Virus record (IMG/VR): IMGVR_UViG_3300037230_000036
Location: 1-64,000 of that record
Source: a virus
Strand: one strand, 5' to 3'
Length of the DNA stretch: 64,000 nt
Positions 8,039 to 58,766 of the stretch are shown piece by piece. The notes beneath the pieces were generated by a model. The model ran no database searches. It was given only the letters and a program-made list of their open reading frames with translations, and was not told the origin of the DNA. A program made the translations under genes and the position numbers. Position 1 is the stretch's first letter; each line of letters starts with the position of its first letter.

Positions 8039-11000
8039 ATGAGCGGCGGCAGTTCCGGCGGTACGACCACCACCACGAGTCAGCCACCCGCCGCGGTCCA
8101 ACAGGCCTATGGCGAGCTGACCAATGCCGCCTTCAACCAGTCGCAGCAGCCTCTCAGTCAGTATTCCGGAAGCTTGGTTGCCGGTTTTACGCCGCAGCAG
8201 CAGCAGGGTTTCCAGACCGTCGCGAACTCGGCGGGCGTCGCCGACCCCTACATCAACTCGGCGGCGCAGGAGTTCGGGTCCGCGACGACCCCGCTCTACG
8301 ACACGGTGCAGAATTACGAGAGCCCCTACACCACCGATGTCACGAATGCGACCCAATCCCTCTTCAACCAGCAGAACGCGACCCAGCTGCAGCAGGTGCA
8401 GGGGCAGGCGACGCAGGCCGGAGCCTATGGCGGCGACCGCGAGGCTGTGGCGCAGGCGTTGACGGCGCAGCAGCAGCAGCTCGCCGAGGCTCCGACCCTC
8501 GCAAACACGGAGCAGCAGGGCTACCAGACCGCGCTTTCGGCGGACGAGGCACAGGGCTGGCTCGGTAGCCAAGCCGGGTTCGGGATGTCGTCGCTCGGCA
8601 CCGAGGCGCAGAACACCGCGCTCACCGGGGCCTCCGCGAACATCTCGGCCGGCGGGATGCAGCAGCAGCTCGCGCAGGAAGAGCTCAACGTCCCCTACGA
8701 GGAGTACACGCAGCAACAAGCCTACCCCTACCAGCAGCTTCAGTTCCTGGCCCCCATTGTCGAGGGCACCGGGTCGCTGTCGGGCGGCACTGGCACGACA
8801 ACGACGCCGGCCCCGAGCACGCTGTCGCAGCTCGGCGGTCTCGGGATGGCCGGGCTCGGGGCCTACGGGCTCTACAACAGCGCAACGAGCGGAGCGAGCA
8901 CGGGTGCCGGCGTCGCGGCCGACTATGCGGATGCTGATTTCGGCAGCAAGAAAGGTGGCCGGATCGGCTTCGCGGGCGGCGGCGCTCCGATGACGAACAA
9001 CGGGATGGTGCCGAACCTATCGATCTCGGTGATCCCGCCGACCCAGATGTTGCCGGCGAACCCGTCATCGCCGATGTCGCCGTTCGCGCCGGTGACGACG
9101 CAGAGCAGCACCGCCGCCAGTTCCGGCATCCTCGGCGATCTCGGTCCGCTGGTGCAGATCGCGGGCCTCGCATCGAAGTTCCTGAAATCTGGTGGTCGGA
9201 TCAGTTTCCAGGATGGTGGCACCACGCTTCTCACACCGCAGACGACGTCGACGACATACGGCCTCCCGGCGGTTCCGCAGATCAGCATCGGGCAGATCAT
9301 CCAGCCGGCGACCGGCCCTGCGATCAAGGGCAGCGGTCCGCCGCATCCGCCGGCCGCGGCGCCAGCCGATAACCCGGAAAAGGATGCCTCCGGGCTCGTC
9401 TCCGGGATGCAGTCGCTGGAGAAATCCGGCCTCCTCGGTTCCGGGAACACTGCGGGTTCGGGCAGCAAAGCCGGGGGCCGGCTCGGCTTCCAGGACGGTG
9501 GGGAGTCGCTGGGGCCGTCGACGGGGACGATCGAGGGGGCGTCACCGAACACGCAGAACTATTTCCAGCAGCTCATGCAGATGTCGACCGAGCAGCTGCA
9601 GGAGCTGTCGGTGCGGATGCCGCCGAGTTCGCCCTACGGGGCTATGGTACAGCGCGCGCTGGCATCGAAGCGGATGAACCCCAGCAGCGCGGCGACGCCA
9701 TCGCCGAGTTACGCGCAGGGGGCGCAGCAACCCTCGGGGGCCGGCACCGTTCCGGGGATCTCTGCGCCCGCCCAGGCGGCCACACCGACCGCCGGCACCA
9801 CGCTCGCGGACGGCGGGATAGCATCGGGCATCGCGGTGCCCTCGGTTTCGGAAAGTGAGATCGATCCGGTTCCGGTTGTCGATCACAGCGGCGATACCGT
9901 GAAGATCCGGTATCCGTCGGAAGGGAAGACCCTCGACCTCGGGCTCCCGTCGATTCGTCCGCGGTCGCCGGGGTTCGCCGCTGGGGGATCGCCGGGGCCG
10001 GCCAGCGCATCATCGACATTTACGGCGCCCCCGCTGTCCTCGTTCTACGCCAACCCGTCGGCGAGCGGATACCAGTGGAACCTGCCGAGCCCGACTGGGA
10101 CCGGGGCCAACGCGGCGTCACCCGCGAATTTCCCATCGACGACGCAAGCCGGGTCGCCGGCGGGGATGTCATTTCTACAGGCACCGAACGGGGTCGCTAT
10201 CCCGCAGCTCAACGCGAACACGTTGACCGGCGGTCCCGGCGTCGGCGGCAATCCAGCCGTCGCGGCCGGGGGTGGTCTTGCTGGCTGGAACCAGCCGTTG
10301 GCGCAGTTGCCAAACCCCGGCGGTTCCCCGGTGACGACGCCGCCGCTCAATTTCGGCACACCGAGCCTCAACGGTATTGCGGCGACTACGACGCCGGGGG
10401 CAACGACGATCGCCATTGATCCTGAAATTGAGGCCGTGGAAAATTCTCCAAGCGGGGGCAGCAAGCGCGGTGGCCGCACCGGGTTCCAGGATGGCGGCGA
10501 TGCGGCTGGGCTTGGGGTTGACGACGGCACGGATGCCGGGGGCGGAGCGGCTCTGTTCCCTCCCGACGACCAGGTGCAGACCGACGTCTTCGCGCTTCCC
10601 AGCATCGGCCTCGGGACCCCCGCCGGGAGTACGAATTTCGCACCGCCATCGGGGCCGAAGTTCGCCCCCTCGTTCGGAATGGGTGATCCGGCTTCGGCCC
10701 TCGTGTCCGGGGCCAAGACGCTGGCGAGCGAAGCGACGACGCCCGACATGCCGGCCGGGTCGCCGAATACCTACGAGCCGCCGTTTACGCCGAAGCCGCT
10801 ACCGCCGATGCCGTCCAAATCGTCGGTGCCCGCCGCTGCGGCACCGGATACGACGGCACCGGATACGACGAAGGACGGGATGGTGTCCGGGTTGCCGAAG
10901 CCAGGCGCGGCTCCCGCGCCGGACCTCTTTGCGCCCGCAGCCGGGGATGCCGGGCTTGGTCTCCGCGACACCGGCTCGCCGGCAACATCAGCCGGTCCAG

Positions 11001-12967
11001 GTCAGGGTCCCGCGCCGAAGGATGCCGCCCCGGCCCCGATCTACGCCACCGGCGATAGTCACGCATGGGGTCTCATCGCGCATGGCGGCCTTCAGGGAAC
11101 GACCAGTGCGACGCCGCTTGACCCGAATGTCGACGGCTCGATCGGTCGGTCGCCGCGCGCTGAGTACGACTACATCACCTCGCGACCAGAGGGATATTGG
11201 AAAGGCAAGAGCGTCGTCTTGTCGACGGGCGTCGCCAACGATCCCTCCCAGGTTGATCTGGTGCCGTGGCAGATATCGGCGCTCAAGGAGCGCGGGGCGA
11301 GCGTGACTGGAATCGCTGGTTTCACCAAGACCGGCGCCAAGGGAACCGACATGACCCCTGTTGCGGCGCAGATCGACAAGATCGCTGGAGACGCCGGGAT
11401 ACCGTTCGGCGGTATTTGGCAACAGGATGTGAGGCCACAGGACCCGGTGCATCTGACGAACACCGGATATCAGAAGGTTGGTCAATGGTTTCAGGGAACG
11501 CCCGAGGCATCGGGGGTTTCCGCTCAACCGGCAGTACCGCCCCAAGGAAGTGCAGCAGAACAGCAGACCGCCGCGAGCACCGCAACGGGACCGATCGCAG
11601 ATTATATTCGCCAAGGATCCATTGCACGCGGTCTCGATCCTACGCTCGCGGAAAAAACGGTGGGGTCAGAAGGTGGCTTCGGAGCGTTCAAACTCGGGGA
11701 TAGTGGATCGTCGGGGGGTGCCTTCCAACTTCACCTCGACGATCCGAGTCGTCCGGGCCAGGGAACGTCGCTGGGTGACCAGTTCTACCGCGATACCGGC
11801 AAAAATCCGCTGGACCCCGCGAACCACCTCGCCACCATCGACTATTCACTCGACTACGCGAAGGCGCATGGGGGCACCTTTGATCCGAACATCTGGCACG
11901 GGTTGCGCAGCGGCAATCTTGTCGCTGGCGGAGGTTTGCAGCTTGGCCAACGCGCGGTGGGCGCAGGGGGCGGCGCACCTGCGGACCAGGTCGTTACCGG
12001 AGGGGCCGCCACTCCGCAGCAGCAGGCGACGGAGATCGGCAATCGCGCGCTCTCACAGGTGCCGCCGGAGCACCAGAGCGCGATGCGGCAGTGGATGCAG
12101 TCACCGTACTACATGGCATTCCTCACCGGGGCCGGCATGCTGGCGTCGCGGTCGCCGTATCCTGGGGTCGCGCTGGGCCAAGGGCTCGAGCTCGCGGCGA
12201 AGGGGATGCAGACGGAGGAGGCGCAGGACAATAAGCAGCAGCTCGCCGAGGCGCAGGTGCTCCGGCAGTCCGACCTCAACGATTACCGGATGCAGCGCGC
12301 CGGCGATCAGCACCAGGCCGCACTCAACACGGCAGCCAACAACACGCAGATGATGCAGTACCGCTACGACAACCTGCAGCGTCAAATCCAGCAGGGCAAC
12401 GACACGCTCGCGCTGCGGCAGGAGATCGCCACCACCTCGGCCGGAGTGCAGGCGTCCAAGCTCGAGGAGCAGCGCATCCGTGACCAAGCGACCCGGGATT
12501 ACCACACCGCCATCGCAAACCGGCCTCCTCCCGGCCTCGCCGTCATCCAGGCGCTGATGAACGACCCCAACGATCCGAACCGGCCGACCACGGTCGCCGA
12601 GGCACAACAGCGGCTGACGGCGGCGAAGGCGAATCCGGATGCCGCAGCCAAGCTCAACCTCTCGATCGAAACACAGGCGCGAACCTGGACGACCGAAGAC
12701 CAGCACGCATTCATGATGGACCCCTCGAACATCGGCCGCAGCTTCGATGCCAACGGGGCCTACCGGCAGCACCTCGACACGCTCAAGGGTGGGCTCGGGG
12801 TTACGCCTCAGCCGGGAGCGCCAGCCACTCAACCGACCCCGCAGGCAGCCGCGCCCTCAGGTCCGCCTCAGGCCGCCGTCAGCGCACTACAAGCTCATCC
12901 GGAAATGCGCGGGCAGTTCGACGCGAAGTACGGGGCCGGGGCTTCGTCGCAGTATCTCGGGCAGTAG
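8039..12967 (+). CDS. Large internal virion / DNA ejection protein with SGNH-hydrolase and lysozyme-like domains
   Basis: Gln/Ala-rich pilot-like N-terminus; GDSH...GVAND...DPVH (SGNH); EGG...GDSGSSGGAFQLH (lysozyme/transglycosylase-like); C-terminal FDAKYGAGA motif. Confidence 0.75.
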   Translation: MSGGSSGGTTTTTSQPPAAVQQAYGELTNAAFNQSQQPLSQYSGSLVAGFTPQQQQGFQTVANSAGVADPYINSAAQEFGSATTPLYDTVQNYESPYTTDVTNATQSLFNQQNATQLQQVQGQATQAGAYGGDREAVAQALTAQQQQLAEAPTLANTEQQGYQTALSADEAQGWLGSQAGFGMSSLGTEAQNTALTGASANISAGGMQQQLAQEELNVPYEEYTQQQAYPYQQLQFLAPIVEGTGSLSGGTGTTTTPAPSTLSQLGGLGMAGLGAYGLYNSATSGASTGAGVAADYADADFGSKKGGRIGFAGGGAPMTNNGMVPNLSISVIPPTQMLPANPSSPMSPFAPVTTQSSTAASSGILGDLGPLVQIAGLASKFLKSGGRISFQDGGTTLLTPQTTSTTYGLPAVPQISIGQIIQPATGPAIKGSGPPHPPAAAPADNPEKDASGLVSGMQSLEKSGLLGSGNTAGSGSKAGGRLGFQDGGESLGPSTGTIEGASPNTQNYFQQLMQMSTEQLQELSVRMPPSSPYGAMVQRALASKRMNPSSAATPSPSYAQGAQQPSGAGTVPGISAPAQAATPTAGTTLADGGIASGIAVPSVSESEIDPVPVVDHSGDTVKIRYPSEGKTLDLGLPSIRPRSPGFAAGGSPGPASASSTFTAPPLSSFYANPSASGYQWNLPSPTGTGANAASPANFPSTTQAGSPAGMSFLQAPNGVAIPQLNANTLTGGPGVGGNPAVAAGGGLAGWNQPLAQLPNPGGSPVTTPPLNFGTPSLNGIAATTTPGATTIAIDPEIEAVENSPSGGSKRGGRTGFQDGGDAAGLGVDDGTDAGGGAALFPPDDQVQTDVFALPSIGLGTPAGSTNFAPPSGPKFAPSFGMGDPASALVSGAKTLASEATTPDMPAGSPNTYEPPFTPKPLPPMPSKSSVPAAAAPDTTAPDTTKDGMVSGLPKPGAAPAPDLFAPAAGDAGLGLRDTGSPATSAGPGQGPAPKDAAPAPIYATGDSHAWGLIAHGGLQGTTSATPLDPNVDGSIGRSPRAEYDYITSRPEGYWKGKSVVLSTGVANDPSQVDLVPWQISALKERGASVTGIAGFTKTGAKGTDMTPVAAQIDKIAGDAGIPFGGIWQQDVRPQDPVHLTNTGYQKVGQWFQGTPEASGVSAQPAVPPQGSAAEQQTAASTATGPIADYIRQGSIARGLDPTLAEKTVGSEGGFGAFKLGDSGSSGGAFQLHLDDPSRPGQGTSLGDQFYRDTGKNPLDPANHLATIDYSLDYAKAHGGTFDPNIWHGLRSGNLVAGGGLQLGQRAVGAGGGAPADQVVTGGAATPQQQATEIGNRALSQVPPEHQSAMRQWMQSPYYMAFLTGAGMLASRSPYPGVALGQGLELAAKGMQTEEAQDNKQQLAEAQVLRQSDLNDYRMQRAGDQHQAALNTAANNTQMMQYRYDNLQRQIQQGNDTLALRQEIATTSAGVQASKLEEQRIRDQATRDYHTAIANRPPPGLAVIQALMNDPNDPNRPTTVAEAQQRLTAAKANPDAAAKLNLSIETQARTWTTEDQHAFMMDPSNIGRSFDANGAYRQHLDTLKGGLGVTPQPGAPATQPTPQAAAPSGPPQAAVSALQAHPEMRGQFDAKYGAGASSQYLGQ

Positions 12968-35969: not shown

Positions 35970-36001
35970 CATGCTTATCCGGTTAGGACACACAGGAGCT
36001 A
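35970..36001 (+). mobile_element. Solo or degenerate end of the TIR mini-cassette family (copy A)
   Basis: CATGCTTATCCGGTTAGGACACACAGGAGCTA, close match to the cassette B and C ends; no intact partner end found. Confidence 0.65.
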
Positions 36002-36144
36002 CCAGTTGCCCCTATCCGCACTCAACCCACCCGCGCCACGCCGGGTCCGGGTTTTCTCGACAGTCCCACCTGTCCATCCTGACGCAGGCGCTCAAGATGA
36101 GGCAGAGGAGGAATAGGGCGGTTAGTTTTGTAATGTGTGCCATA

Positions 36145-46502: not shown

Positions 46503-46747
46503 TGCTCACCGATCAGCAGGGGTCTCGGCTCTACGTCATTCGCCATTCGCGAAGTCAGACGGAGGACGAGCGGTTCTTGATTTCGATTATCGACGCGCTC
46601 AGCGAGGGATCGGCGCGAGAGCTCGCTGGCGAGATCGACGCGCGCCACAAACTCGAACTCGCCCTTTCCGGCAAGGATAGAGCGATGGGCGTGTTGTTCG
46701 ATCGTCTCGGAAAAGCCGGCATCGACTGCTCCGACCTCATCCCCTGA
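46499..46747 (+). CDS. Hypothetical protein
   Basis: GTGA overlap. Confidence 0.55.
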   Translation: MMLTDQQGSRLYVIRHSRSQTEDERFLISIIDALSEGSARELAGEIDARHKLELALSGKDRAMGVLFDRLGKAGIDCSDLIP

Positions 46748-46782
46748 ACCATGCCTATCCGGTTGTCGCACACAGGAGCTAG

Positions 46783-46920
46783 ATGTTGATGACCAAACAG
46801 CAGTTACGAATGGAGCCACTGAGATGGTGGCAGTGGCCGGCGGTGCTCTGCGGCCTTCCGCTGTTTCTCTTGCTGGCGTGGGTCGTTCTCGGGCCGTTTG
46901 GCGTGCAGAGTAAATATTGA
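46783..46920 (+). CDS. Cassette B cargo 1: 45-aa membrane peptide
   Basis: RBS and ATG from the cassette end (AGGAGCTAGATG); one TM segment. Confidence 0.6.
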   Translation: MLMTKQQLRMEPLRWWQWPAVLCGLPLFLLLAWVVLGPFGVQSKY

Positions 46921-47096
46921 TGCAATACCCGGCGTTTAGCGGCCTGCCCGGAGGGGTTCTTTGGGACTTTATCTACGCCCATCCCTGGCTTTTGGCCCCG
47001 TTGATGTGGGTCGCTTGCGTAGGGCCATACGTCATCGGCCTCGGCGCTATCTGCTACGTTCTCTACAGGTGGTGGCGATGGGTAACAACCGGATAA
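46920..47096 (+). CDS. Cassette B cargo 2: 58-aa membrane peptide
   Basis: TGATG coupling; TAA stop lies inside the right TIR. Confidence 0.55.
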   Translation: MQYPAFSGLPGGVLWDFIYAHPWLLAPLMWVACVGPYVIGLGAICYVLYRWWRWVTTG

Positions 47097-47110
47097 GCAC
47101 GCCCTGAACC

Positions 47111-47764
47111 ATGTCTGGCGACGAAACTCCTCTTCCGATCGCTGGGCTGCTGGCCCTCGATATCGCCACAGTGTCCGGATTTGCCGCCTGTTTACCCGGC
47201 GGTCAGCCGATCTGGGGTCACCGCCGTATGGGGACGCCAGAGGCACCGATGGGAGAGACGCTGCATTTCTTCGGCACATGGATCGGCATGACGCTCGATA
47301 AGCTGCGACCGAAGCATGTGATGATCGAGCAGCCCTACGTCCCGACGGGTGCGCCTGCGGGACGCCGCGCCAGGCTCGCCAACTCGAGCATGACATTGCC
47401 GATCGCCGGATTACCCCTTGACCTCGTTCCATCGATGGCGGCCCCGATCAATTTAGCGACGATCTGGCGGCTCCTGGCCATGACGGGGCGCGTCTACGAA
47501 GCCTGCTTCGAGCGCGGGATCGAGTGCCGCCATGTGCCAACGCAAACATGGTCGAAGTTCTTCGTTGGACGCGGCTCCGGGTTCAAGACGAAGCAGGCAA
47601 AGAAGCAGGCGGCTATCGACACGGCGCTCCGTTATGGCTGGGTGGCGACGAATGACGAAGCCGACGCCTTAGGGATTCTCCTTTACGCGGAGCACATCTT
47701 CTACCCGCAGATCGCGGCAAAGCGCCGGCCGACCGGGCCGCTGTTCGCGAGGGGCGGCCGATGA
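47111..47764 (+). CDS. RuvC-like Holliday junction resolvase
   Basis: LALDIAT.SGFA, VMIEQP, NDEADALG. Confidence 0.8.
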   Translation: MSGDETPLPIAGLLALDIATVSGFAACLPGGQPIWGHRRMGTPEAPMGETLHFFGTWIGMTLDKLRPKHVMIEQPYVPTGAPAGRRARLANSSMTLPIAGLPLDLVPSMAAPINLATIWRLLAMTGRVYEACFERGIECRHVPTQTWSKFFVGRGSGFKTKQAKKQAAIDTALRYGWVATNDEADALGILLYAEHIFYPQIAAKRRPTGPLFARGGR

Positions 47765-47910
47765 CGATTGATTTTGCGCCGTTCGCGATTCGGCCCCTTG
47801 AACGGGCGCCCATGGTAAGCGTAGCGTAGGGACCAAGAAAGCCGAACGCCCCGGTTCGCGTCCAACGATCCGAGGCGTTCTCGCCGACCCCGATGATCTG
47901 GATCGAGGAA

Positions 47911-48153
47911 ATGGCTTGCCGCGTATTTAACTCACGGAAATGGCAGTTTCAAGGCGGCGGCGGTCATCGCGCCCGCATTGCGCTGCTGTCCGAGATCGCG
48001 CGCATCGACGAGACGATCGCCGAGATCGAGGAGTTCGATCCGGAACCCGACGAGCCGATCATGCTGGCGCACGTCCAGGTATCGACCCGGGCCGAGGCTG
48101 TGGCGCTGCTGCGGCGGTGCCGGCGCGAGATCGAGCGGCGGATGGCGGCATGA
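47911..48153 (+). CDS. Hypothetical protein
   Basis: GAGG RBS. Confidence 0.45.
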   Translation: MACRVFNSRKWQFQGGGGHRARIALLSEIARIDETIAEIEEFDPEPDEPIMLAHVQVSTRAEAVALLRRCRREIERRMAA

Positions 48154-48322
48154 GGGCGATCCGCCACGATTTTGACTGGTCGAAGGCGCCGACGCCCTGG
48201 CGCTGGATCGGCCCCGCGTGGCGGGACGAGTGCGGGGCACGTCCGCCATCCCGTCTAAACGCAGCGCCGCTAAAAGCCGGTGACCTGCCGGAACCCCATC
48301 ACCTCCGCAAAAGAGAGAAGTT

Positions 48323-50113
48323 ATGAGCGACATCTACGGTCCGCGCAGCGATTTCGGCCAACTGATGCACGCGATGAAGTACCGCGCGCCCGAAGAGTCG
48401 TTCGACGATTACTGCGTCCGCTACGCCCGCACGACCGCCAACGACAACCAGGCTCATTTCCGCCGGCTCCTCGCATACCTGCGGGATCAGTCGATCCTGC
48501 CCGGCGGTCGGCAGCAGCTGGCCGTCGGCCGGCCTCGCGAGACGACCGCCTACCAGTGTTTCGTGATGGGGGAGATCCCGGACAGCACGCGCGGCATTTT
48601 CGACTCGGTGCGCGATACCGCGCTGACATTGCGGTCTGGCGGCGGGACCGGCATGGACTTCTCACCGTTGCGGCCGGCGGGCGAGCCGATCCGCGGACTC
48701 GGGCACGGCGCCTTCGCGAGCGGCCCGGTCAGCTTCATGGGCGTCTGGCACTCGGCCTGCGGCACGATCATGTCCGCCGGCGAGCGCCGCGGGGCGATGA
48801 TGGCGACCCTGCGCATCGACCATCCCGACATCCTTCTTTTCATCAAGGCGAAGCAGAACACGGGCGCGCTGACCAACTTCAACATCTCGGTCACGGTCAC
48901 CGACGAGTTCATGGAGGCGCTGGCGGTGGACGGTCTCTACACGCTGCGGTTCGGCGGGGTGGAGTTTGGCCAACTCCGGGCGCTCGATGTGTGGTCGATG
49001 ATAATGGAGTCGAATTGGGATTGGGGCGAGCCCGGCACGATCTTTATCGACAGGATCAACCGGCTCAATCCTCTCGCTTATTGCGAAACGATCCATTCGA
49101 CCAACCCATGCAGCGAGCAACCCCTGCCGCCTTGGGGCGCCTGCCTTCTGGGCTCGCTCAACATGGTCAAGTTCCTCGTCCCGATCCACGAGGCGGCCGA
49201 CGGGCTGAAACTCGCCGCGGAGTCCGGCCATCAGACGGTTCGGTACGAGATCGACTTCGAGCGGCTCGACGATGCGGTCGACGCTGCGGTGCGCGCTTTC
49301 GATGCGGTGATCGAGCGCACCATCTATCCGCTCGAGCAGCAGCGCGCCGAGGCTATTGCGAAGCGGCGCATGGGCGTCGGCGTGACCGGCATGGCCAATG
49401 CGATCGAGGTCTGCGGCGCCCCCTACGGAACGCCCGCCTACCTTGACCACCAAGACATCCTCCTCGAGCGCATCAACACGCAGGCCTATCGAACCTCGGC
49501 GGCACTGGCGCGGGAGAAGGGCACCTTCCCGCTGTGGAATGCCGAGCGCTATTGCGAGGGGGAGTTCTTCCGCACCCGGCTTCCGGATGACCTGCAGGAC
49601 GAAATCCGCCGCAACGGTCTCCGCAACGGTCTCCTGACATCGATTGCCCCGACCGGCACGATCAGCATGGTCGCCGATTATGTGAGCTCGGGGATCGAGC
49701 CGGTGTTCTCACCGCGGCTTTCCCGCACGATCAAGACGCCCCAGGGCGAGCGCCAATTCGAGGTCGTCGACTATGCGACCCAGTATTACGGCGTGAAGGG
49801 GCGCGCGGCCTCGGATGTGTCTGCCGAGGAGCACATCGACGTGCTGTGCCGGGCGCAGCGCTGGGTCGATAGCTCGATCTCGAAAACCTGCAACGTCACC
49901 GGCCAGATTGCCGGCGAGGGCTCCGGCATGAGTTTCGCCGACTTCAAGAACCTGTACCTGCGAGCGTGGGAGGGTGGCGCCAAGGGGTGCGCGACTTTCA
50001 ACTCGAACGGAAAGCGCCGCGGCATCCTGGCGCCGCTGCCCGATGCCGAGGCTGCGGATGGAGCCGCATGCTTCATTGACCCGGAGACCGGCAACCGCGC
50101 CTGTGGGGATTAG
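48323..50113 (+). CDS. nrdJ: Class II (adenosylcobalamin-dependent) ribonucleotide reductase
   Basis: PGGR, QCFV, GGGTG.DFS.LRP, RRGAMM, TNPCSEQPL, ACLLGS, IAPTGTIS, SISKTCN; no beta-subunit gene nearby. Confidence 0.92.
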   Translation: MSDIYGPRSDFGQLMHAMKYRAPEESFDDYCVRYARTTANDNQAHFRRLLAYLRDQSILPGGRQQLAVGRPRETTAYQCFVMGEIPDSTRGIFDSVRDTALTLRSGGGTGMDFSPLRPAGEPIRGLGHGAFASGPVSFMGVWHSACGTIMSAGERRGAMMATLRIDHPDILLFIKAKQNTGALTNFNISVTVTDEFMEALAVDGLYTLRFGGVEFGQLRALDVWSMIMESNWDWGEPGTIFIDRINRLNPLAYCETIHSTNPCSEQPLPPWGACLLGSLNMVKFLVPIHEAADGLKLAAESGHQTVRYEIDFERLDDAVDAAVRAFDAVIERTIYPLEQQRAEAIAKRRMGVGVTGMANAIEVCGAPYGTPAYLDHQDILLERINTQAYRTSAALAREKGTFPLWNAERYCEGEFFRTRLPDDLQDEIRRNGLRNGLLTSIAPTGTISMVADYVSSGIEPVFSPRLSRTIKTPQGERQFEVVDYATQYYGVKGRAASDVSAEEHIDVLCRAQRWVDSSISKTCNVTGQIAGEGSGMSFADFKNLYLRAWEGGAKGCATFNSNGKRRGILAPLPDAEAADGAACFIDPETGNRACGD

Positions 50114-50118
50114 GTGCG

Positions 50119-51036
50119 ATGCGTCTCAGCGACGAGCAGATTGCCCGCGCCCGCGCCCGCACGGACATCTACGCAAAGGCCACGACGCTGCGTCCGCACG
50201 GAAGCTGGCTCACGGGCCGGTGTCCGCTCCACGATGATTCGAAGCCCAGCTTCGGGATCAAGAACGGTCGGTGGACGTGCTTCTCGGGATGCGGAGGCGG
50301 CGACCCGATCGCCTTCCTGCAGCGCTGGCATGGCCTCTCATTCGAGGAGGCCGTGCGCGAGCTCACCGACGACGGACCCCTGCGCGGCACGCCGGTCGCG
50401 CCAGTGCAGGGCGCCCCACGCCGGGAGGAGGATACGACAGCGGTGCGCGACATCCTCCGCGGCTGCGAGCCGATCACCCCGACGACAGCGGCGCACCTCT
50501 ATTTGTGGTCCCGCAACCTGCCGACCCGACAGCCTGGACTCCTTGCGCACCGCGGCCTGATGTGCGTGGAGCAACGCCGCCCACTGCCGGCTTTGGTGGC
50601 GCCGATCTCCGACGCCGAGGGCAACGTGACGGCGCTGCAGCGGATCTGGTGCCGGTCCAGCTTCGACAGCGACGAGAAGGATGGCCGCGCGCTCCTAGAG
50701 ACGCGCCGGAAATCGTTGGGCTCGATGGGGCGCGGCGCCGTGCAGCTGAGCCGGCCCGGCCCGATCCTCGGGATTGCCGAGGGTGTCGAGAAGGCCATCG
50801 CGGCGTCGGCCATGTTCGGGGTTCCGGTGTGGGCCTCCTGCGGGGCGCAGCGGATGGCGCGGCTTGATCTGCCGCCGATCGCCGAAAAGGTTCTGCTGTT
50901 CGCCGACAATGATGACGCCGGGCGCGCGGCGGCGCGGGACGCCGTTGACGCCTATCGTCCCCGCCGGATCGTGCCGATGTTCCCGGAGCCCCGGTTCAAG
51001 GACTGGGAAGACCAGTACCGGGAGCAGGCATCGTGA
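50119..51036 (+). CDS. DNA primase (CHC2 zinc finger + TOPRIM)
   Basis: CPLHDD.KPSF...CFSGC; IAEGVE, FADND.AG, KDW.D. Confidence 0.88.
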   Translation: MRLSDEQIARARARTDIYAKATTLRPHGSWLTGRCPLHDDSKPSFGIKNGRWTCFSGCGGGDPIAFLQRWHGLSFEEAVRELTDDGPLRGTPVAPVQGAPRREEDTTAVRDILRGCEPITPTTAAHLYLWSRNLPTRQPGLLAHRGLMCVEQRRPLPALVAPISDAEGNVTALQRIWCRSSFDSDEKDGRALLETRRKSLGSMGRGAVQLSRPGPILGIAEGVEKAIAASAMFGVPVWASCGAQRMARLDLPPIAEKVLLFADNDDAGRAAARDAVDAYRPRRIVPMFPEPRFKDWEDQYREQAS

Positions 51037-51300
51037 GCACGGCAAGCCTATTCCCGGCCGCGCCTCGGGGCGAAGACCGCATCCGGGTCGACCATGCCCG
51101 CGTGAGATCAGATTGGTATGTGGAGCCGTCATGGAGTGTGGGGCTGCTGCTCGATGCGGTTTCGTTTCACGGCCCGGTGCATGATCCTTGTTGTGGGGGA
51201 GGGACGATCCCGAGAGCGGTGCTCGCGCATGGGGGAACGAGGTTTGTCTCGGCCTCCGATCTGGTCGACCGCGGATACGGCGAGGGTGGTCGATCAAATG
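51033..51300 (+). pseudogene. N-terminal fragment of a phage adenine methyltransferase
   Basis: DWYVEP.W....L, DPCCGGGTI, SDLVDRGYG; no NPPY/F motif follows. Confidence 0.6.
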
Positions 51301-51363
51301 GGATCCCCGGAAGCGCAGGGCGCCGCACCGGTTTGAGGACAGCGCCCGCCGGGAGGGTGCCGC

Positions 51364-51669
51364 GTGAGGCCGCGGGTCGCCGAAATCCAGTACGCCGTCG
51401 CAGGTCGGTTCCGCATCAAGATGAGCGATATGGTTTCCCGTCGGCGCGCCCGGTGCGTGGCGAGGCCGCGCCAGGTCGCGATGTATCTGTCCCGCCAGCT
51501 GACGTCGCTGAGCCTGCCCCAGATCGGCCGGCATTTCGGGGACCGCGACCACACCACGGTCATGCATGCCTGCCGGGTCATCGAGACGCTGCGGGAAAGC
51601 CACGCCGACCTCGACGCCGCCATCACCGAGATCATCGCCACCCTATCCGAGGAGCACCCACCGATATGA
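51364..51669 (+). CDS. DnaA C-terminal (domain IV) HTH protein
   Basis: RPRQVAMYLSRQLT.LSLPQIGRHFG.RDHTTVMHA. Confidence 0.9.
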   Translation: MRPRVAEIQYAVAGRFRIKMSDMVSRRRARCVARPRQVAMYLSRQLTSLSLPQIGRHFGDRDHTTVMHACRVIETLRESHADLDAAITEIIATLSEEHPPI

Positions 51670-52076
51670 GCGAGCAGCATTTTGCGTGGAACGAGGAGAC
51701 CCTGGCCGCGCTTCGGCGCCTGGTCTGCGTCGAGGGGAAGACTTTTGCGGCGGCCGCGGAGAAACTCGGCACCTCCAAAAATGCGGTCGTCGGCAAGGCG
51801 CACCGGCTCGGGATCTATCCGTCCGATGCCGTGGCCTCGCCGCGGTCGGCGGCTTCGCGGCAAGCGCAGGAACGGCGCTGGAATCCGCCTCGGCCACCGG
51901 CAGCCGATCGCTTCCCACCAAAGGGATGCTGTCTCTTCCCAATTGGCGATCCCCGCGCAGATGACTTCCACTTCTGCGGCGACAAGATCGCGGCCCCTGG
52001 GGAACCCTACTGCGATGACCACCACCGGCTCTGTTGGCAGCCGGCGCGGGTGCAGCGTCTCGACGCCGCGGAATAA
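51666..52076 (+). CDS. gcrA: GcrA-like cell-cycle regulator
   Basis: W.EE....L.....EG......LG.SKNAVVGKAHRLG; C.FPIGDP...FHFCG....PYC..H. Confidence 0.88.
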   Translation: MSEQHFAWNEETLAALRRLVCVEGKTFAAAAEKLGTSKNAVVGKAHRLGIYPSDAVASPRSAASRQAQERRWNPPRPPAADRFPPKGCCLFPIGDPRADDFHFCGDKIAAPGEPYCDDHHRLCWQPARVQRLDAAE

Positions 52077-52104
52077 TGAACGAGATCAGGGTAAGGACGG
52101 CACG

Positions 52105-53256
52105 ATGGCACGCGGCGCAGAGGTCTTCCGGCCCCCGCAATGGAACGACGCGCCGGCGGCACCTCGCCCGTTCCGCCCCTTCTTTGCGGCCAGCCTTGAC
52201 GGCGAGCCCGACACCAAGCCGGAGTGGTTAATCGACGGTTTGCTGATGCGGGGAACGATCGCGCTCTTCGCCGGCGTGCCGAAGGTGGGAAAATCCCTCC
52301 TGATGCAGCAACTCCTTTCCGCCGTGGCGCTGGGCAAGGATTGGCTGGGCCGGGAAACGGTCTCGGCGCGGTGCTTCGGCCTCTTCTGTGAGGACAACCA
52401 CAAGACGCTCGTGAAGCGGCAACGCGACATCAACACTCATTTCGGGGTCGAGGCGCCGGACTACGAGACGGGACTGTCCTGGGAAAGTCACGACACCGAG
52501 GATGCCACGCTGGTCGCCTTCGAGAACTGGAGCGACAAGCCGCTTTTCACCGATCTCTGGCATCAGCTCTGGCGGCACGTCGACGAGAACGGCATCGAGC
52601 TTCTGGGGCTGGACCCCGCCGGGCGCATCTTCGGAGGCAACGAGAACTACAAGCGGCAAACCTCTAATTTCATTCTCGAATTGCACAAGAAGATATCGGA
52701 GCGCAACGGCGGTCTGATCCTTGCCGCGCACCCTCCGAAGAACGATCCCCGCGGCTATGCGGGCTCCGTGGCGTGGCACGGCTCGGTGCGGCTCGGCATG
52801 TCGCTGCAGCGGCCAAAGGGCTACAACGAGGACAAGGACGAGCCGCGGGACAGCCGCGTGCTGAAGAGTCTCGGCGGCAACTACGTGCCGGGCCGGTCGT
52901 CGGACAACATCCGCTACGAGCATGGGGTTTTCGTTGTCGACGAGCCGGAAGAAACCGAAAGACCAGAACGCTTTAGCATGGACGAGTTGAAGTATCGCGT
53001 CATGCAGGGGATGCGGCGAGTGATTGATAACGGCGGCTTGGTCCTGGCCGACGAGATGCACCCGAAATCGATGCCGATGCGGGCCCGGCGCAGCGGCGAC
53101 GCGGTGCTGTTAAGAACGCCCTTTAACTCGTTGTATATCGCGCAGGAAACGCTGCTGCGTGAGGGGAAGGTGGTCCGGGTCAAGGTGCGGGGGCAGTGCG
53201 TGCTGCGCCCCGCTGACGCCTCGGCTTACGACAACGAGCAGCCCTGGGAAGGCTAG
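52105..53256 (+). CDS. AAA_25 / RepA-like replicative helicase
   Basis: WLIDG....G...LFAG.PKVGKS Walker A, CED, LDP...FGGNEN, AHP, GS.AW. Confidence 0.85.
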   Translation: MARGAEVFRPPQWNDAPAAPRPFRPFFAASLDGEPDTKPEWLIDGLLMRGTIALFAGVPKVGKSLLMQQLLSAVALGKDWLGRETVSARCFGLFCEDNHKTLVKRQRDINTHFGVEAPDYETGLSWESHDTEDATLVAFENWSDKPLFTDLWHQLWRHVDENGIELLGLDPAGRIFGGNENYKRQTSNFILELHKKISERNGGLILAAHPPKNDPRGYAGSVAWHGSVRLGMSLQRPKGYNEDKDEPRDSRVLKSLGGNYVPGRSSDNIRYEHGVFVVDEPEETERPERFSMDELKYRVMQGMRRVIDNGGLVLADEMHPKSMPMRARRSGDAVLLRTPFNSLYIAQETLLREGKVVRVKVRGQCVLRPADASAYDNEQPWEG

Positions 53257-53500
53257 GGGCCGGGATTGACCGCGCCGCCGTCGTCTTCCCAGCGCGGCAG
53301 GTCGATGGTGGCGATTCAGAAGCTGATTTCCGCAACATGCGAGTTTACGTAAAGTGTAAAATCGTGTTGACGATTGAGGAGCACTTAGAACTGATCCGGC
53401 TGTCGCGCATAAGGGTTTGACCAGGAACCGGAACCACGTTCAAAGGCTCGCTCACCAGCGCGCTCCGCTTCCCAGCGGGTAGGGCAATCCCAACGATGAC

Positions 53501-56488
53501 TCATGGCGATCTCAGTCCTTCGGGGTTGTTACAGGAAGGGCACTCGCGGAAATGTGGGTCGGCCACGCCGAGCGCGTAACATTCCCAGCCGCTCCCCTCA
53601 CAGACGGGGCATGGATCGTCCTGGTAGCCGCCGCCCTCCGGCAGCAAACCTCCGCCGACGCCGCGACCGTCGCAGCAGGAGCAGAGGAAGCGCTTGCACA
53701 CACCGCAGCATGCAATCTGGTCAGCCAGCGCATCGGCCATCGGCGCCCTCGTTGATGAGCCGGTCGAGCTCGCCGCAGAGCGCGCCCATCTCGCTCCACA
53801 GCCGCTCCCGGTCGTCTGGATCGCGCGCCGCGGAGATCCGACCCCCGACGTCGACGATGGCCTCCCGCACGGCTGCGGCGCGGTCCTGTGGCGCCCGCGC
53901 GGGGAACGGGATCACGGTCATTCGTCAGCCTCTTCGAGTTCGAGCAGGTCGGCTACCGCCTCTGCCTCGGTCGAGCCCCATCCGACCTTGGCGCCGAGAT
54001 CGTAGTCGCCGCGCGTGGCAGACCAGTCGGCGCTGCGGTACGGGATCGGCGGGTAGACGTGTTCGGTAACGATCTTTTCGGCCTCGATCTCGGTCATTCT
54101 ATCACCGAGAAATCGACGCCGAGGGCAACGAGTTCCTCCCGCAGCCGCGCCGCGTAGCGCTCGGCGATCTCGCGAGCCTCGATCGTAGTGATGCGCAGCG
54201 TGAGGTGGGGGCCGGCCGGCATGTCAAGATCGATCGCCGCTGAATTACCCCTCCTCGAGGCGCGCACGAACGTCTCGACCGCCTTCAACTCGTCATCCAG
54301 TTTCATTGCGGCAGTAAGGTTGTAGCGCTTCATCGGGATTCTCCCCTCTCCGCGAGTTTCCTGCACCGATCCCGCCACTGGAACAGAGCGTCCAAGATCG
54401 GGTCTGAGGCGCCGATGTCCTCGCGCTTTATCCGCCGCATGAACGCGAGGATCAGGTCGTTGGCGATCACGCTCGTCTGCTGAGCGTGGCGGCGGAGGTC
54501 AGAGGGCTTCATGGCTTGTCTCCGGGCGAGGGCGAGCGAACCACAATCGTCTCGACGTGGTCGGGAACGCCGTCAGTCGGCAGCATCGCCGTCAGCCCTG
54601 ACCCTTTGCGGATCGTCTGGGTCGGGCCGAACTCCGCAAGCATCTCGACGAGTTTTTCGCGCCAGTTCTCGGAGGTGATCTGGTCCGCGCGCGCTAGCAT
54701 ACCGGGGGATTGTTGTTCCACCATCGCGCGCATATCTGCCATAAGCTGTTTATCGGCGAAATGATGCGTCCAGATTGGGTGTCCCATCAGGTATTCGGCC
54801 GCTTCATGGATTTCTGAAAAGCTTTTGCAGAGCATGACCCCACTCGCAATTGAAGCGATGACGCCAGTAGGAAATTCGCGAGCTTCGGGTTTCATCGGAT
54901 CGCCACCAGAAAGAGGACGATCGCGCCGAACAGAAACGCCATCGCGATCCAACCGAGCAGCGAGACAGCCGCGCGCTCGCCCTGTGGCGCGATGCTGACC
55001 GGCCCACCGACAACCGCGATGTCGCTGATGTGCCGAGCCATCGCATCGCGCTGGAACTCGCCGTCGCGCGCATCCAGTTGCGCCGGCCATGGGCGCGTGA
55101 TGCCTTTGTCCATTTCCAATTCCTCCGTCAAACATCATTTCGTCCCCAGCGCCCGGAGATGCTCCTGCGCGTCGGCCAGGAACAGCCTTGCATGGGCATA
55201 GTCGCCCGCTTCTGCCGCTGCATGTGCGGTCTTGAGCGCGGCGAGCATGGCGATCTTGCGAGCGGCCGGCAGCGGGGGCCGCAGCCCGAGCACGTCGACC
55301 AATTCCCGCAGCGGCTTATTCAGATAGTCCGATTGAGCGTCAACCATTGGTCATCTCCTTGGCGTTGACGGCTTCGATCTCAGTGCGCCATTTCTCGATC
55401 AGGGCATGGATGGCGGCGATGGCGTCCTCCGCAGTGTAAAAGGCCCCATGCCGGCTCGTAACCTCTTCGCGACGGAACCGGCCGCCCGCGCTTTGATAGG
55501 CGATCCAGCCATCGGCGGTCGCGCAGACCTCGGCATCGAGGCGCCCCAGGAACGGCGCGGCGGCATAGATCGCGTTCAGCTCATCGAGGGCCTTTGGGAT
55601 CAGCGTCGAGTCCGCAAGCGCGGGGCCGGCATCTCGACAAAAGCAATGCAGGACACCGCCAGCGTGCGGACCAGGGCGAGGTTGGCCGCATCCTCGGCCA
55701 GGACGATGATTGCCCTCAAGGCGGCGTCCATCAGCGGGAGAGCCCGCATCGCCATCGCGATCTGCCCCTCGGTTTCGTCATCGATATCCCCACGCGGGTT
55801 GACCAGCGCGACCTCGCGACCGCCCCACACGATCGAGCGCGTAACGGTCCCCTCTTCTGCGGCACAGGTCCATTCGCCCCCAGGCGGGGTAGCGGCGTTG
55901 ACGATCGCCTCGTCCTGGCTGTAGGGGCGCCGGGATTGGGCGGCGAAGAATGCCTGCCTGATAGCGTTCGCGTCGCTCATCGGATTCACTCCTTGTTACG
56001 GTGTCTCTGCGCGGCCTCGACGTCGCGCCAGTATTGGCCCCAATCCGCAACCACGTCGTCGAGGCGTAGGGTGCGATCGCCCCGCAGCCGGATGCCGATC
56101 GCGTTGAGGCGCTGCTCGGCCTCGCGCCACGGGGTTTCGTTGGTTCGCGCCTGTACGAAGCGGCGCTCTTCGGCGAGGACTTCGGGGAAGTGTTCGGCGA
56201 GGTAGCGGTTGGGGCGGGCGTAGGGGGCGGTCATCCTCGGCTCCGCTCGTTGCGATCGTTCCACACCACCCGGCAGTTCGCCGGCGCGTTGTTGTTCCGG
56301 TTGCCATCGATGTGGTGAATGCTGAAGGCTCCAAGCAGCGTGTGCATGTAGTCGGCGCGCTCGGTGTCGCCGCGAGCGCGGTAGAACTTCTCCAGCGCCC
56401 GCAGGCTCACTAAAGCCTCGAGGAAGTCCTGCGACGCGACGAGGGGGTCGGCTTCGCGTTCCTCGGCTGGGGTGGTGGGTTTCGGCAT
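53501..56488 (-). other. Chain of ~11 small overlapping hypothetical genes (53501-53740, 53721-53921, 53918-54097, 54094-54333, 54330-54512, 54509-54895, 54892-55131, 55135-55347, 55600-55980, 55986-56234, 56231-56488)
   Basis: Head-to-tail overlaps with RBSs; 56231-56488 has an HNH-like HHIDGNRNNN..NC tail. Confidence 0.6.
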
Positions 56489-56497
56489 GGGCTTTTC

Positions 56498-56986
56498 CTA
56501 GAGCTTTTGGGCGTCGGGATGAGGGAGGCACGGGATAAGAGCCTCGATCTCTCTCTTGGTTTCCCGCTCCGAAACGTCTTTTGACGGGGGCGCAGACGCT
56601 TTTGCGAGTCCGTCTTTGCCATACCTCTCGTCGATGCGCTGGGTATCGTAATCGAGCCAGCCCTGGAACATGCCGCGGGTACGGCTGTCGTCCACGGACG
56701 ATACCCACGGCTGCAGCGCGGCGATCTTGGATCGGCATTCCTGCACAAAAGCGGCCGGAGCGCCCTCGTCTCCGCACTGTAAATTTAATCCTGCGTTGGC
56801 CAATATCTCCAGCGCAGAACGCCTTAGCACCTCGTCGGATGGTTCTGTCGGACCGCAGAAGGTGGAAATTTCGTCGGTGAGCCGGTGGCGCACTGCGTCG
56901 CGCGCCTCAGGCGACAGAAACCATGTTGCCGAGGAAATGCCCGCAATCGTCACGATCGTCCCGGCGACAAGATATCCGGTCTTCAT
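56498..56986 (-). CDS. Membrane-anchored hypothetical protein
   Basis: GGAGG RBS; N-terminal TM segment. Confidence 0.55.
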   Translation of the reverse strand: MKTGYLVAGTIVTIAGISSATWFLSPEARDAVRHRLTDEISTFCGPTEPSDEVLRRSALEILANAGLNLQCGDEGAPAAFVQECRSKIAALQPWVSSVDDSRTRGMFQGWLDYDTQRIDERYGKDGLAKASAPPSKDVSERETKREIEALIPCLPHPDAQKL

Positions 56987-57059
56987 CTCAGAAATCCTCC
57001 AGAGGCGTGGCGCTTCCCGAGCGGCAAGCCGGAGCCTGCCGCCACGGAAGAACCCGCGT

Positions 57060-57302
57060 TCAGCACTCGACGCCGAGTTCCCTCAATTCCCGGCGGTAAT
57101 GGTTGGCACGCTCGACCAGCCAATCGACCCCGGCGTCAGTGGTGGGGAACAAAGCCTCGGTGACCCGCTGATTATCCAATTGCACGATTACGAAAACGTT
57201 GGCGCGTACCGGCGTGTTTTTGTCGAGAGCCTTCAGACCGGCGTTGATCTCTTGCAGCAGGGCGTTCAACCCCACGACGCGGGAGAGATTGGATAATTTC
57301 AT
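57060..57302 (-). CDS. Hypothetical protein
   Basis: Preceded by the start-associated repeat. Confidence 0.55.
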   Translation of the reverse strand: MKLSNLSRVVGLNALLQEINAGLKALDKNTPVRANVFVIVQLDNQRVTEALFPTTDAGVDWLVERANHYRRELRELGVEC

Positions 57303-57335
57303 CGTGTTCTCCTATGGCACGGGAAGGGTCGGTGC

Positions 57336-58067
57336 TTAGTCTCTATAAGCGTGTTCCCATCTTGCCCAACGGTCGATCGCGCCGAGTTGATGAAGGTCAA
57401 GATCGGGCTGAATGCCCTTTGCGTGGTCGGATTTGATGACCTCAAGCCACGCGAGCATTGCCGCGTAGATGAGGTGCGTGCACTCGTCTCGCGTCGCCTC
57501 CTGTAGCGCGATCGGTTCATCCAGAAGGTTGCTGCGCCAGTCGAGCGGGTGACTGGTTGCCTCGAACCCTTCGGGCCACTTCTTTCGACCCCAGTGGCAA
57601 CCGCCATTGTCGTCGACGGCAGGCCAAGCGCAGCCGGCATCAAGATCCTCTTGGGCTTCGCACCCTTCCTGGTCGCAGACCGGCGGATTGGCCTCGCGCC
57701 ACTCCTCGGGCGAATACATTGACAGGCTCTGGCCGCAATACCCGCATCGAGCAGTCCCTAATTCTTCTTCAAGATGCGTGATGATCTCCTCGATGAATTC
57801 GCCGATGTAAAACTCATCGTCTTCGCGGCCAGGATAATCGTTTCCACAATCCCATCCGCTGTCGCCACGGATCACCCAGTATCGGGGGCGCTGATTGATG
57901 GTCCCGACATAGAAGAGGGCGCGACCGTCACCGTAGATTGTGTTCATCAGATAGGGGGTGAAGGTGATCGCACCGCTCGGTGTCCAAAGATGAGCCGTGG
58001 TCTCGATCTCGATCGCAGCCTTCAGGCGCGCGTGGATCGTGTCGGGCTTTCGTCTGATAAGGTCCAC
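57336..58067 (-). CDS. Hypothetical protein
   Basis: GTG start after the repeat RBS. Confidence 0.6.
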   Translation of the reverse strand: MDLIRRKPDTIHARLKAAIEIETTAHLWTPSGAITFTPYLMNTIYGDGRALFYVGTINQRPRYWVIRGDSGWDCGNDYPGREDDEFYIGEFIEEIITHLEEELGTARCGYCGQSLSMYSPEEWREANPPVCDQEGCEAQEDLDAGCAWPAVDDNGGCHWGRKKWPEGFEATSHPLDWRSNLLDEPIALQEATRDECTHLIYAAMLAWLEVIKSDHAKGIQPDLDLHQLGAIDRWARWEHAYRD

Positions 58068-58094
58068 GGGACAGTCTCCTACGCCACGGAAGGG

Positions 58095-58253
58095 TCAGTG
58101 ATTAGCCTCGTAGGCCGATTGAAGCGCCTCGGCGATAACGCGAACCACATCCTCGCGCGGAGGATCAGTCAGCTTACGAGCCGGGTCATAAGCGAGCGCA
58201 ATAATCCGCGCCAACGCCTCCGCCTCTTTCTGGAAACAGGCAAGAATTTTCAT
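58095..58253 (-). CDS. Small hypothetical protein
   Basis: 52 aa; RBS is the duplicated target GGAGAAAC; stop lies within the repeat. Confidence 0.5.
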   Translation of the reverse strand: MKILACFQKEAEALARIIALAYDPARKLTDPPREDVVRVIAEALQSAYEANH

Positions 58254-58263
58254 CGGTTTCTCC

Positions 58264-58743
58264 CATGCTTATCCGGTTGTTGCCCACGGCTGCTACCTAT
58301 AGCGCCGGAATATCCGACAGCGCGAAGACGATGCCTCGGCAGTATTTTTCGCCGTCCTCTAGAACCTCGAAGGACGCGTGCGGGATCGCCGTCTCGTAGA
58401 CCCAAGAGTAGCCCTCAACATCCCACTTTGCCTTAATCGGCGTTGCCGTCTTCATCAGCCGCTTGAAGTGCGGGCAGTCCTCGTTGTCGCATTCGTTGAC
58501 CAGTAGACCGCTTCTCGTGAAGAAGGCTTCACCACCTTCATAGCAACCCATCTCATCGTTCACAGCGCCCCGAAATTCCATCAAGTCATCGCTGGCACCA
58601 AACACGACTACCAGGCCGCTTTTTTTGGCGATCTGATTATCGGCTGGACCCGTCTCTTTCCCGTATTCGCACCCGTTGAGGGCGATAGCGAGTTCCTGGC
58701 TATTCATCATCTAGCTCCTGTGTGCGACAACCGGATAGGCATG
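58264..58743 (-). mobile_element. TIR mini-cassette C (480 bp), 8-bp TSD GTTTCTCC
   Basis: CATGCTTATCCGGTTGT at 58264 and ACAACCGGATAGGCATG ending at 58743; GTTTCTCC at 58256-58263 and 58744-58751. Confidence 0.9.
58297..58710 (-). CDS. Cassette C cargo: conserved phage hypothetical protein
   Basis: ATG supplied by the cassette end; GLVVVFGASDDLMEFRGA...IPHA.F.V.EDGE.YCRGIVF. Confidence 0.75.
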   Translation of the reverse strand: MMNSQELAIALNGCEYGKETGPADNQIAKKSGLVVVFGASDDLMEFRGAVNDEMGCYEGGEAFFTRSGLLVNECDNEDCPHFKRLMKTATPIKAKWDVEGYSWVYETAIPHASFEVLEDGEKYCRGIVFALSDIPAL

Positions 58744-58766
58744 GTTTCTCCTATGGCACGGAAGGG

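Follow-up and report, generated by a model that had tools for sequence, protein, structure and literature searches.

Two short elements, which we refer to as B and C, lie in the viral record IMGVR_UViG_3300037230_000036. The record (91,268 bp, with direct terminal repeats) is rated complete, and its first 64 kb formed the window, that is, the whole stretch of DNA that we analyzed. Element B (46750–47101, plus strand; 46742–47109 with its target duplications) is placed between the TGA stop of a gene encoding 82 amino acids (aa) and the start codon (ATG) of a gene for a RuvC-like resolvase; the operon also holds ribonucleotide reductase and primase genes. Element C (58264–58743; 58256–58751 with its duplications) carries its cargo on the minus strand and stands ahead of a 52-aa gene that starts at 58253. 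Both insertion sites are tight gene junctions, and both elements are co-oriented with their neighbors.

The layout of B is CCCTGAAC / CATGCCTATCCGGTTGT ... ACAACCGGATAAGCACG / CCCTGAAC. The upstream copy of its 8-bp target duplication (46742–46749, plus strand, CCCTGAAC) contains the TGA stop of the 82-aa gene, and the downstream copy (47102–47109, plus strand, CCCTGAAC) is followed by the resolvase ATG at 47111. Between them, the left inverted repeat and left-end module (46750–46788, plus strand) consist of the terminal 17 nt CATGCCTATCCGGTTGT, then CGCACAC, the Shine-Dalgarno (SD) sequence AGGAG and CTAGATGTTG, and the right inverted repeat (47085–47101, minus strand) is CGTGCTTATCCGGTTGT when read inward. 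The direct repeat at B amounts to 12 bp once the terminal CATG of the element is included (CCCTGAACCATG). The layout of C is GTTTCTCC / CATGCTTATCCGGTTGT ... ACAACCGGATAGGCATG / GTTTCTCC. Taken in the orientation of the cassette, it begins with the upstream duplication (58744–58751, GGAGAAAC on the minus strand), continues with the left inverted repeat and left-end module (58708–58743, minus strand), whose 36 nt equal those of B and finish in AGGAGCTAGATG, and closes with the right inverted repeat (58264–58280, plus strand, CATGCTTATCCGGTTGT read inward) and the downstream duplication (58256–58263, minus strand, GGAGAAAC). This last copy repeats the GGAGA ribosome-binding site of the 52-aa gene, the SD of which is preserved.

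The 17-mer end pattern CRTGCYTATCCGGTTGT has four exact matches in the window and one with two mismatches, compared to a mean of 0.24 matches in shuffled sequences, and none of 100 shuffles reached five. Both 8-bp duplications are perfect, both 17-nt termini fit the consensus, and the left end of B equals that of C over 36 nt (CATGCCTATCCGGTTGTCGCACACAGGAGCTAGATG), with the cargo open reading frames (ORFs) beginning at nt 34. A first-pass annotation, made from the sequence alone, had described inverted 17-bp ends, exact but different 8-bp duplications, a shared 36-bp left end, and insertion at co-oriented gene junctions with the downstream start context kept; all of these features were confirmed for B and C.

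The cargos of the two elements are unrelated, as the same annotation had claimed: two hydrophobic peptides in B versus a 137-aa phage protein in C. The first ORF of B (46783–46920, plus strand) encodes a 45-aa peptide with one hydrophobic segment; its ATG is element nt 34, the ATG at its third codon (46789) is an alternative start, and it had no match in a Pfam search of the cargo set. The second ORF (46917–47096, plus strand) encodes a hydrophobic peptide of 58–59 aa from a likely ATG at 46920 that overlaps the TGA of the first ORF, and its TAA stop (47094–47096) lies within the right inverted repeat, which confirms that the last stop codon of B is supplied by that repeat. The C cargo (58297–58710, minus strand) matches phrog_25176 (E 1.4e-30), a phage family of unknown function. 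Homologous proteins are encoded in Aeromonas phage ST4 (50% identity) and Ochrobactrum phage ORM_20, in both cases by an ordinary operon gene without insertion sequence (IS) ends in its vicinity, and for this reason the C cargo looks like a captured phage gene.

To place these ends in a family, we scanned viral contigs and bacterial genomes with a pattern that covers all the ends (CRTGCYTATCCGGTTNNNNCMCA); loci recovered by the end scans are labeled with L-numbers. The pattern matched at least 118 viral stretches and at least 120 bacterial-genome stretches, and the bacterial matches listed were nearly all from Proteobacteria, including Cupriavidus, Polaromonas and Paracoccaceae. Among the matches listed, strict pairs of ends had exact 8-bp duplications in 34 of 45 viral and 33 of 40 bacterial cases, and relaxed ends yielded 64 viral and 56 bacterial unique copies with exact 8-bp duplications. 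The exact B/C left end is also present in four other viral contigs and nine metagenome contigs, and in these four viral contigs the elements are paired and flanked by 8-bp duplications. Thus, the 36-bp end singled out in the first-pass annotation does recur in other genomes as paired copies with such duplications.

Some of these relatives are autonomous. Three viral elements (L030, L078 and L086; 1765–1968 bp, with exact 8-bp duplications) encode transposases of 345–350 aa that match DDE_Tnp_IS1595 (PF12762, E 1e-32 to 1e-34) and Zn_ribbon_IS1595 (PF12760, E 1e-11 to 1e-13), and the transposase alignment conserves CxxC...CxxC, D156, D236 and E299-x3-R303-x2-R306. Homologues of this transposase occur in ~20 viral loci, at 56–90% identity, among the matches listed. 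B, C, L030, L078, L086 and others have the same terminal 15 nt (CRTGCYTATCCGGTT). In the IS1595 family, an 8-bp duplication goes together with a transposase that has a zinc-finger N-terminus and a DDE_Tnp_IS1595 C-terminus (PMC8101967). The 8-bp duplications of B and C, the ends that they share with autonomous copies and the transposase domains of these relatives all agree with membership in this family. No IS1595 transposase was found in the whole 91,268-bp genome, either by tblastn or with the PF12762 profile in six frames. Thus, B and C have IS1595 ends in a genome that lacks such a transposase, and we are highly confident that they are non-autonomous IS1595-family derivatives, that is, mobile insertion cassettes, of a family that is itself known and a kind that is not new. 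The ISSod11 subgroup has the end consensus nnnGcnTATC and a DDHK + ER4R7 signature; the B/C-type ends (CATGCYTATC) fit this consensus, and the conserved E-x3-R-x2-R block of the transposases fits the signature, such that a placement in this subgroup may be suggested tentatively. The claim of the first-pass annotation that the window is free of transposase could therefore be extended to the entire genome, its idea of a non-autonomous system is supported by the ends shared with transposase-encoding relatives, and the autonomous element with the same ends that it had envisaged exists, in forms of 1.5–2.3 kb with IS1595-family transposases.

In a transposase tree (a quick tree, midpoint-drawn and without an outgroup), phage and bacterial copies cluster by source, with 5 label changes compared to ~14 in shuffles. 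One main phage clade holds 10 copies, and other phage copies are nested in bacterial clades. Since phage copies sit inside bacterial clades, the element appears to have passed between chromosome and phage more than once. We also noted that one viral contig (L125) contains two different IS1595-type transposase genes (687–2293 and 10373–11290), one of which belongs to the family studied here; the other is ~30% identical and falls on a separate deep branch with L076 and L083.

The phage and bacterial copies are built differently. Bacterial copies fall into two size classes, ORF-free MITEs (miniature inverted-repeat transposable elements) of 101–273 bp and plain IS of 1071–1190 bp, the latter with a single transposase gene that starts 43–127 nt from the end. 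In the phage set of 64, 54 are cassettes with cargo and without transposase, the sizes of which are continuous from 207 to 1191 bp, and 10 are transposase-bearing copies of 1514–2253 bp. In all 10 of these, the transposase gene comes last, 15–40 nt from the right end, and is preceded by one to four passenger ORFs on the side of the left end. In one bacterial locus (L204:784–1183, a Chromatiaceae contig), two identical 196-bp MITEs are arranged in tandem, each flanked by GAACAAAC, with the middle copy common to both.

The cargo of the 64 viral elements comprises ~70 unrelated protein clusters. Those that could be named include C5 and N6 DNA methyltransferases, Mom-like DNA-modification proteins and PAPS-reductase-like proteins, as well as a nucleoside deoxyribosyltransferase, an RNA ligase and TnpB; the remainder are mostly phage families of unknown function. 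The identical 33-nt B/C left end precedes at least 10 different cargo genes, which bears out the proposal that cargo is interchangeable behind identical ends. A second subfamily of ends is represented by L020 (11729–12205) and L029 (4675–5148), whose left 54 nt are 94% identical and whose right 44 nt are 100% identical, and which carry unrelated cargo of 125 and 129 aa. TnpB is found in a 1156-bp element (L060:1253–2408) with IS1595-type ends and an 8-bp duplication (ATATCAGA), and is its sole cargo (367 aa, with OrfB_IS605 and Cas12f1-like TNB domains); thus, an RNA-guided nuclease gene appears to ride in a DDE-transposon cassette. A literature search for a link between TnpB and IS1595 gave nothing usable.

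Evidence that these elements move, and of where they land, came from the flanking sequences. In viral and bacterial copies alike, the duplicated 8-mers follow a symmetric and AT-rich pattern, GWWYRWWC, and are 35–40% GC compared to 58% GC in the flanks. Empty-site alleles with a single 8-mer were found for two bacterial MITE copies (L137 vs. L162, with 64 of 68 flank positions identical, and L164 vs. L200). Moreover, a 365-bp transposase-less phage cassette is present in L014 and L069 at 98.3% identity, with unrelated flanks and different duplications. The duplications in viral and bacterial copies, together with the two empty sites, support DDE transposition with a fixed 8-bp duplication, as the first-pass annotation had deduced from B and C.

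For 58 viral elements we then reconstructed the empty site and, relying on crude ORF calls for the flanking DNA, compared the insertion points to random positions. On the upstream side, 34% of elements (13% of random positions) have the end of a same-strand ORF no more than ~20 nt away; on the downstream side, 53% (31% of random positions) have the start of one at such a distance. The two features coincide in 21% of elements compared to 4% of random positions, and opposite-strand features showed no enrichment at insertion sites. Thus, insertion at co-oriented junctions is a trend of the family, in agreement with the idea that these cassettes are slotted into such junctions. The trend can be explained by an AT-rich target combined with the loss of phages in which genes were disrupted, because in GC-rich phages 8-mers of this kind sit mainly at ribosome-binding and stop/start regions.

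The left end was of particular interest, because the first-pass annotation had proposed that it supplies a built-in translation start. Among the 64 viral elements, 53 have a first cargo ORF that begins between nt 24 and nt 64 of the left end (modes, nt 34, 37 and 44), and in at least 10 cargos behind the B/C left end the gene's own ATG directly follows CTAGNNG(TTG). That the cargo ATGs adjoin the end module so closely may be the outcome of imprecise events followed by selection for expression and compactness. The start ATG is part of a subterminal motif, CTAGATGT(T/A)G, and this motif and its CTAGATGTTG form with the ATG are conserved in the ends of bacterial IS and MITEs; because of this conservation, the left-end start appears to be an ancestral part of the IS end that was put to use, not a new invention. 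An SD-like sequence (GGAG, GAGG or AGGA within nt 16–50 of the end) is found in 27 of 64 phage left ends (42%), compared to 10 of 64 phage right ends (16%) and 23 of 112 bacterial ends (21%), and is thus enriched in phage left ends without being universal. Within our sample, the AGGAG-type left end occurs only on transposase-less cassettes; the left ends of the 10 autonomous phage copies mostly have the CTAG-type motif (GTGCTAGA in five) and no AGGAG. Thus, the idea of a built-in start stood insofar as both an SD and an ATG are present in the B/C left end, but the ATG belongs to an ancestral motif and an SD-like sequence accompanies only 42% of phage left ends. On balance, we consider it somewhat probable, judging from the sequence, that the left-end start is functional.

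Other features of the left end bear on how ribosomes might reach the cargo. A promoter scan found no sigma-70-like promoter in B or C, and terminator-like hits were at chance level; because B and C lack a promoter-like site, read-through is the probable source of cargo transcripts. Frame 1 of the B/C left end has a TAG at nt 31–33, directly before the cargo ATG, and frame 2 forms a mini-ORF that opens at the terminal ATG (nt 2–4) and runs to a TGA overlapping the ATG of the cargo. Directly before this terminal ATG, a copy of the target's stop or ribosome-binding site is set by the duplicated 8-mer (CCCTGAAC+CATG in B, GGAGAAAC+CATG in C). In 35 of 64 elements, the mini-ORF has its stop between -4 and +7 nt relative to the cargo start, a count that is not independent evidence because the ends are related to one another. 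The left-end frames could relay ribosomes into the cargo. We also observed that the terminal CATG of B and C recreates the start context of the displaced gene (46742–46790; 58705–58751), and that in a 1112-bp bacterial IS (L140:3378–4489, also in L151, L175 and L217) the open transposase frame extends back to nt 2 of the left inverted repeat, such that upstream translation could run into the transposase.

We considered that B and C might instead be dead relics, old insertions acquired perhaps at a prophage stage and now immobile, with a left-end start that is accidental and has no role in expression. Consistent with this, the subterminal motif CTAGATGTTG is ancestral and occurs in the ends of bacterial IS and MITEs too, the sampled copies included no helper whose inner ends match, and an unpaired end at 35970 (see below) points to decay in this genome. 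We nevertheless judge this explanation unlikely, given that B and C have perfect duplications, consensus 17-nt termini and left ends identical over 36 nt, that a sister cassette has recently moved (the one that is 98.3% identical at two sites), that SD-like sequences are ~2.5-fold enriched in phage left compared to right ends, and that an ATG directly after the end module in at least 10 cargos points to selection on expression or compactness. Less probable still is a role for the repeats as phage modules for regulation or recombination (promoter/stem-loop cassettes, of which the PeSLs of T4-type phages are an example, or operator sites), with homologous recombination shuffling the genes between them. 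Conservation of the left end well past the terminal repeat, its SD and start and its position at gene junctions would all suit a module, as would the unpaired copy at 35970; yet the repeats are inverted, not direct, 120 copies have exact, site-specific 8-bp duplications, empty sites carry one 8-mer, the same ends enclose a transposase gene in phages and bacteria, and no promoter-like sites were found in B and C. Finally, the genome has no IS1595 transposase and many window genes without annotation, among which an unrecognized recombinase or other phage-encoded mover could in principle hide, but we give this notion almost no credence because the terminal 15 nt are identical to those of transposase-encoding elements, the 8-bp duplication is a hallmark of the family (PMC8101967), and activation in trans is the known rule for transposase-less derivatives (PMC3129680).

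We therefore favor transposition of B and C as IS1595 derivatives, which could proceed as follows. A full-length relative on the host chromosome or in a co-resident phage would supply the transposase in trans; the enzyme would bind the ends and insert the cassette by DDE cut-and-paste with an 8-bp staggered cut at an AT-rich GWWYRWWC site, which in GC-rich phages would mostly mean ribosome-binding and stop/start junctions. Insertions would survive only where they fall between genes and follow the operon's direction, and the duplication would preserve the start context of the downstream gene. The cargo would then be read from the operon transcript, and its translation would probably begin from the left-end SD (AGGAG) and ATG. 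Taking these steps together, we tentatively suggest that an IS1595 branch adapted to phages now serves them as a general means of gene delivery. In this view, evolution has turned the left end into a portable module for translation initiation, the duplication copies the target context, the terminal CATG takes over that context, and the frames, assisted by the internal AGGAG, relay ribosomes into the cargo. This joint proposal is possible, and we stop short of calling it probable.

Several observations weigh against the favored account of B and C as transposed IS1595 cassettes. Empty-site alleles of B and C had no matches when viral and metagenome contigs were searched with wobble-degenerate junction patterns; thus, the expectation of empty sites was borne out for the two bacterial copies, with their single 8-mer, but not for B or C. 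Close relatives of the phage were not found by megablast of 16 kb against deposited phages, and a search of viral contigs with the resolvase protein gave no close relative. The junction test is weakened by its crude ORF calls, and the enrichment that it detected could be due wholly to selection against gene disruption, with no targeting. Furthermore, none of the 10 sampled autonomous phage elements has an AGGAG-type left end, and their left ends share with the AGGAG type only the terminal 15 nt and 19–24 of the first 30 nt; since the sampled left ends differ inward of the terminal 15 nt, no helper could be pinned down for B and C.

Comparison to known systems indicates both kinship and differences. 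Within IS1595, transporter IS with passenger genes were first defined (Siguier, Gagnevin and Chandler 2009, as described in PMC3129680 and PMC8496243). B and C resemble IS of this family in their terminal inverted repeats and 8-bp duplication, in the zinc ribbon and DDE_Tnp_IS1595 domains of their autonomous relatives, and in that some members carry passengers; unlike plain IS1595 elements, the window copies have no transposase, most phage copies are cargo-only, and the left-end SD and start appear to be used by the cargo. A close analogue in organization is MIC231, a mobile insertion cassette derived from IS231 in Bacillus cereus (De Palmenaer et al. 2004, as cited in PMC3129680); cassettes of this type are activated in trans by the cognate transposase (PMC3129680). 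B and C likewise have IS ends around unrelated, non-transposase genes and no transposase, which makes them mobile insertion cassettes, and they share with MIC231 a modular cargo and presumed mobilization in trans; the analogy to IS231-derived cassettes drawn in the first-pass annotation is thus apt. The two differ in family (IS4/IS231 vs. IS1595), in duplication length and in setting (chromosomes and plasmids vs. phages). To our knowledge, cassettes of the MIC231 type have no translation start built into an end.

Three other kinds of element were compared and rejected. The mycobacteriophage elements MPME1 and MPME2 are 439–440 bp, with one ORF, constant content, a 6-bp left-end addition and no target duplication (PMC3029335). 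Like the elements studied here they are sub-kilobase mobile elements with inverted repeats, their presence or absence among related phages being an MPME feature, but they have no assigned transposase family, and the variable cargo, sizes of 207–2253 bp and exact 8-bp duplications found here rule out identity. MITEs are similarly non-autonomous, with the ends of a parent IS and duplications, and the bacterial copies of 101–273 bp in the same family are true MITEs; B and C are not MITEs in the strict sense, because the genes that they carry are intact and apparently functional (two ORFs in B, the 137-aa PHROG-matching protein in C). Integron cassettes, which have an attC recombination site and are inserted at attI by an integron integrase, are likewise promoterless single-gene units with interchangeable cargo, one orientation and an outside promoter. 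The elements studied here show no attC site and no integrase (no search aimed at an integrase was made), and their inverted terminal repeats, 8-bp duplications, many insertion sites and DDE-type transposase led us to reject this identity.

Literature searches for phage-borne IS1595 cassettes returned nothing relevant, and we found no published description. A phage-borne radiation with near-obligatory cargo, a left-end translation start and cargo rich in DNA-modification genes thus seems to be undescribed. Both this transposase and these ends are absent from 50,697 deposited phage records. Because the family is abundant in environmental viral contigs and absent from the deposited records, it has probably been overlooked.

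These elements bear on how phage genomes are assembled. Phage genomes are mosaics, in which accessory genes are wedged precisely between conserved genes, and such mosaics are usually ascribed mostly to rare illegitimate recombination followed by selection. The family described here offers a defined enzymatic route, in which a DDE transposon with an AT-rich 8-bp target places promoterless single genes at operon-oriented junctions, and the inserted genes often bring their own ribosome-binding site. Since the cargo is rich in DNA-modification genes, which typically shield phage DNA from restriction, the elements may spread counter-defense functions between unrelated phages. If the gene-delivery proposal is correct, it would provide a concrete mechanism by which morons and anti-restriction genes are placed precisely between phage genes and spread among co-infecting phages. 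In addition, a small cassette that inserts without polar damage could serve as a tool for adding genes to phages.

The unpaired IS end in the window lies at 35970–36003 (plus strand, CATGCTTATCCGGTTAGGACACACAGGAGCTACC). It is of the right-end type and resembles the right ends of two other loci (L006 and L007). A search of the whole genome at up to four mismatches found no second end to partner it, and no second copy of its flanking 8-mer occurs nearby. Next to it is a 43-aa lipoprotein-like ORF with the lipobox LSAC (36012–36143, minus strand), whose stop is 8 nt before the solo end and whose ATG is preceded, 7 nt away, by the TAA stop of the upstream gene. This arrangement looks like that of a cassette which became fixed in the operon and has lost its left end, with the 43-aa ORF as its probable cargo.

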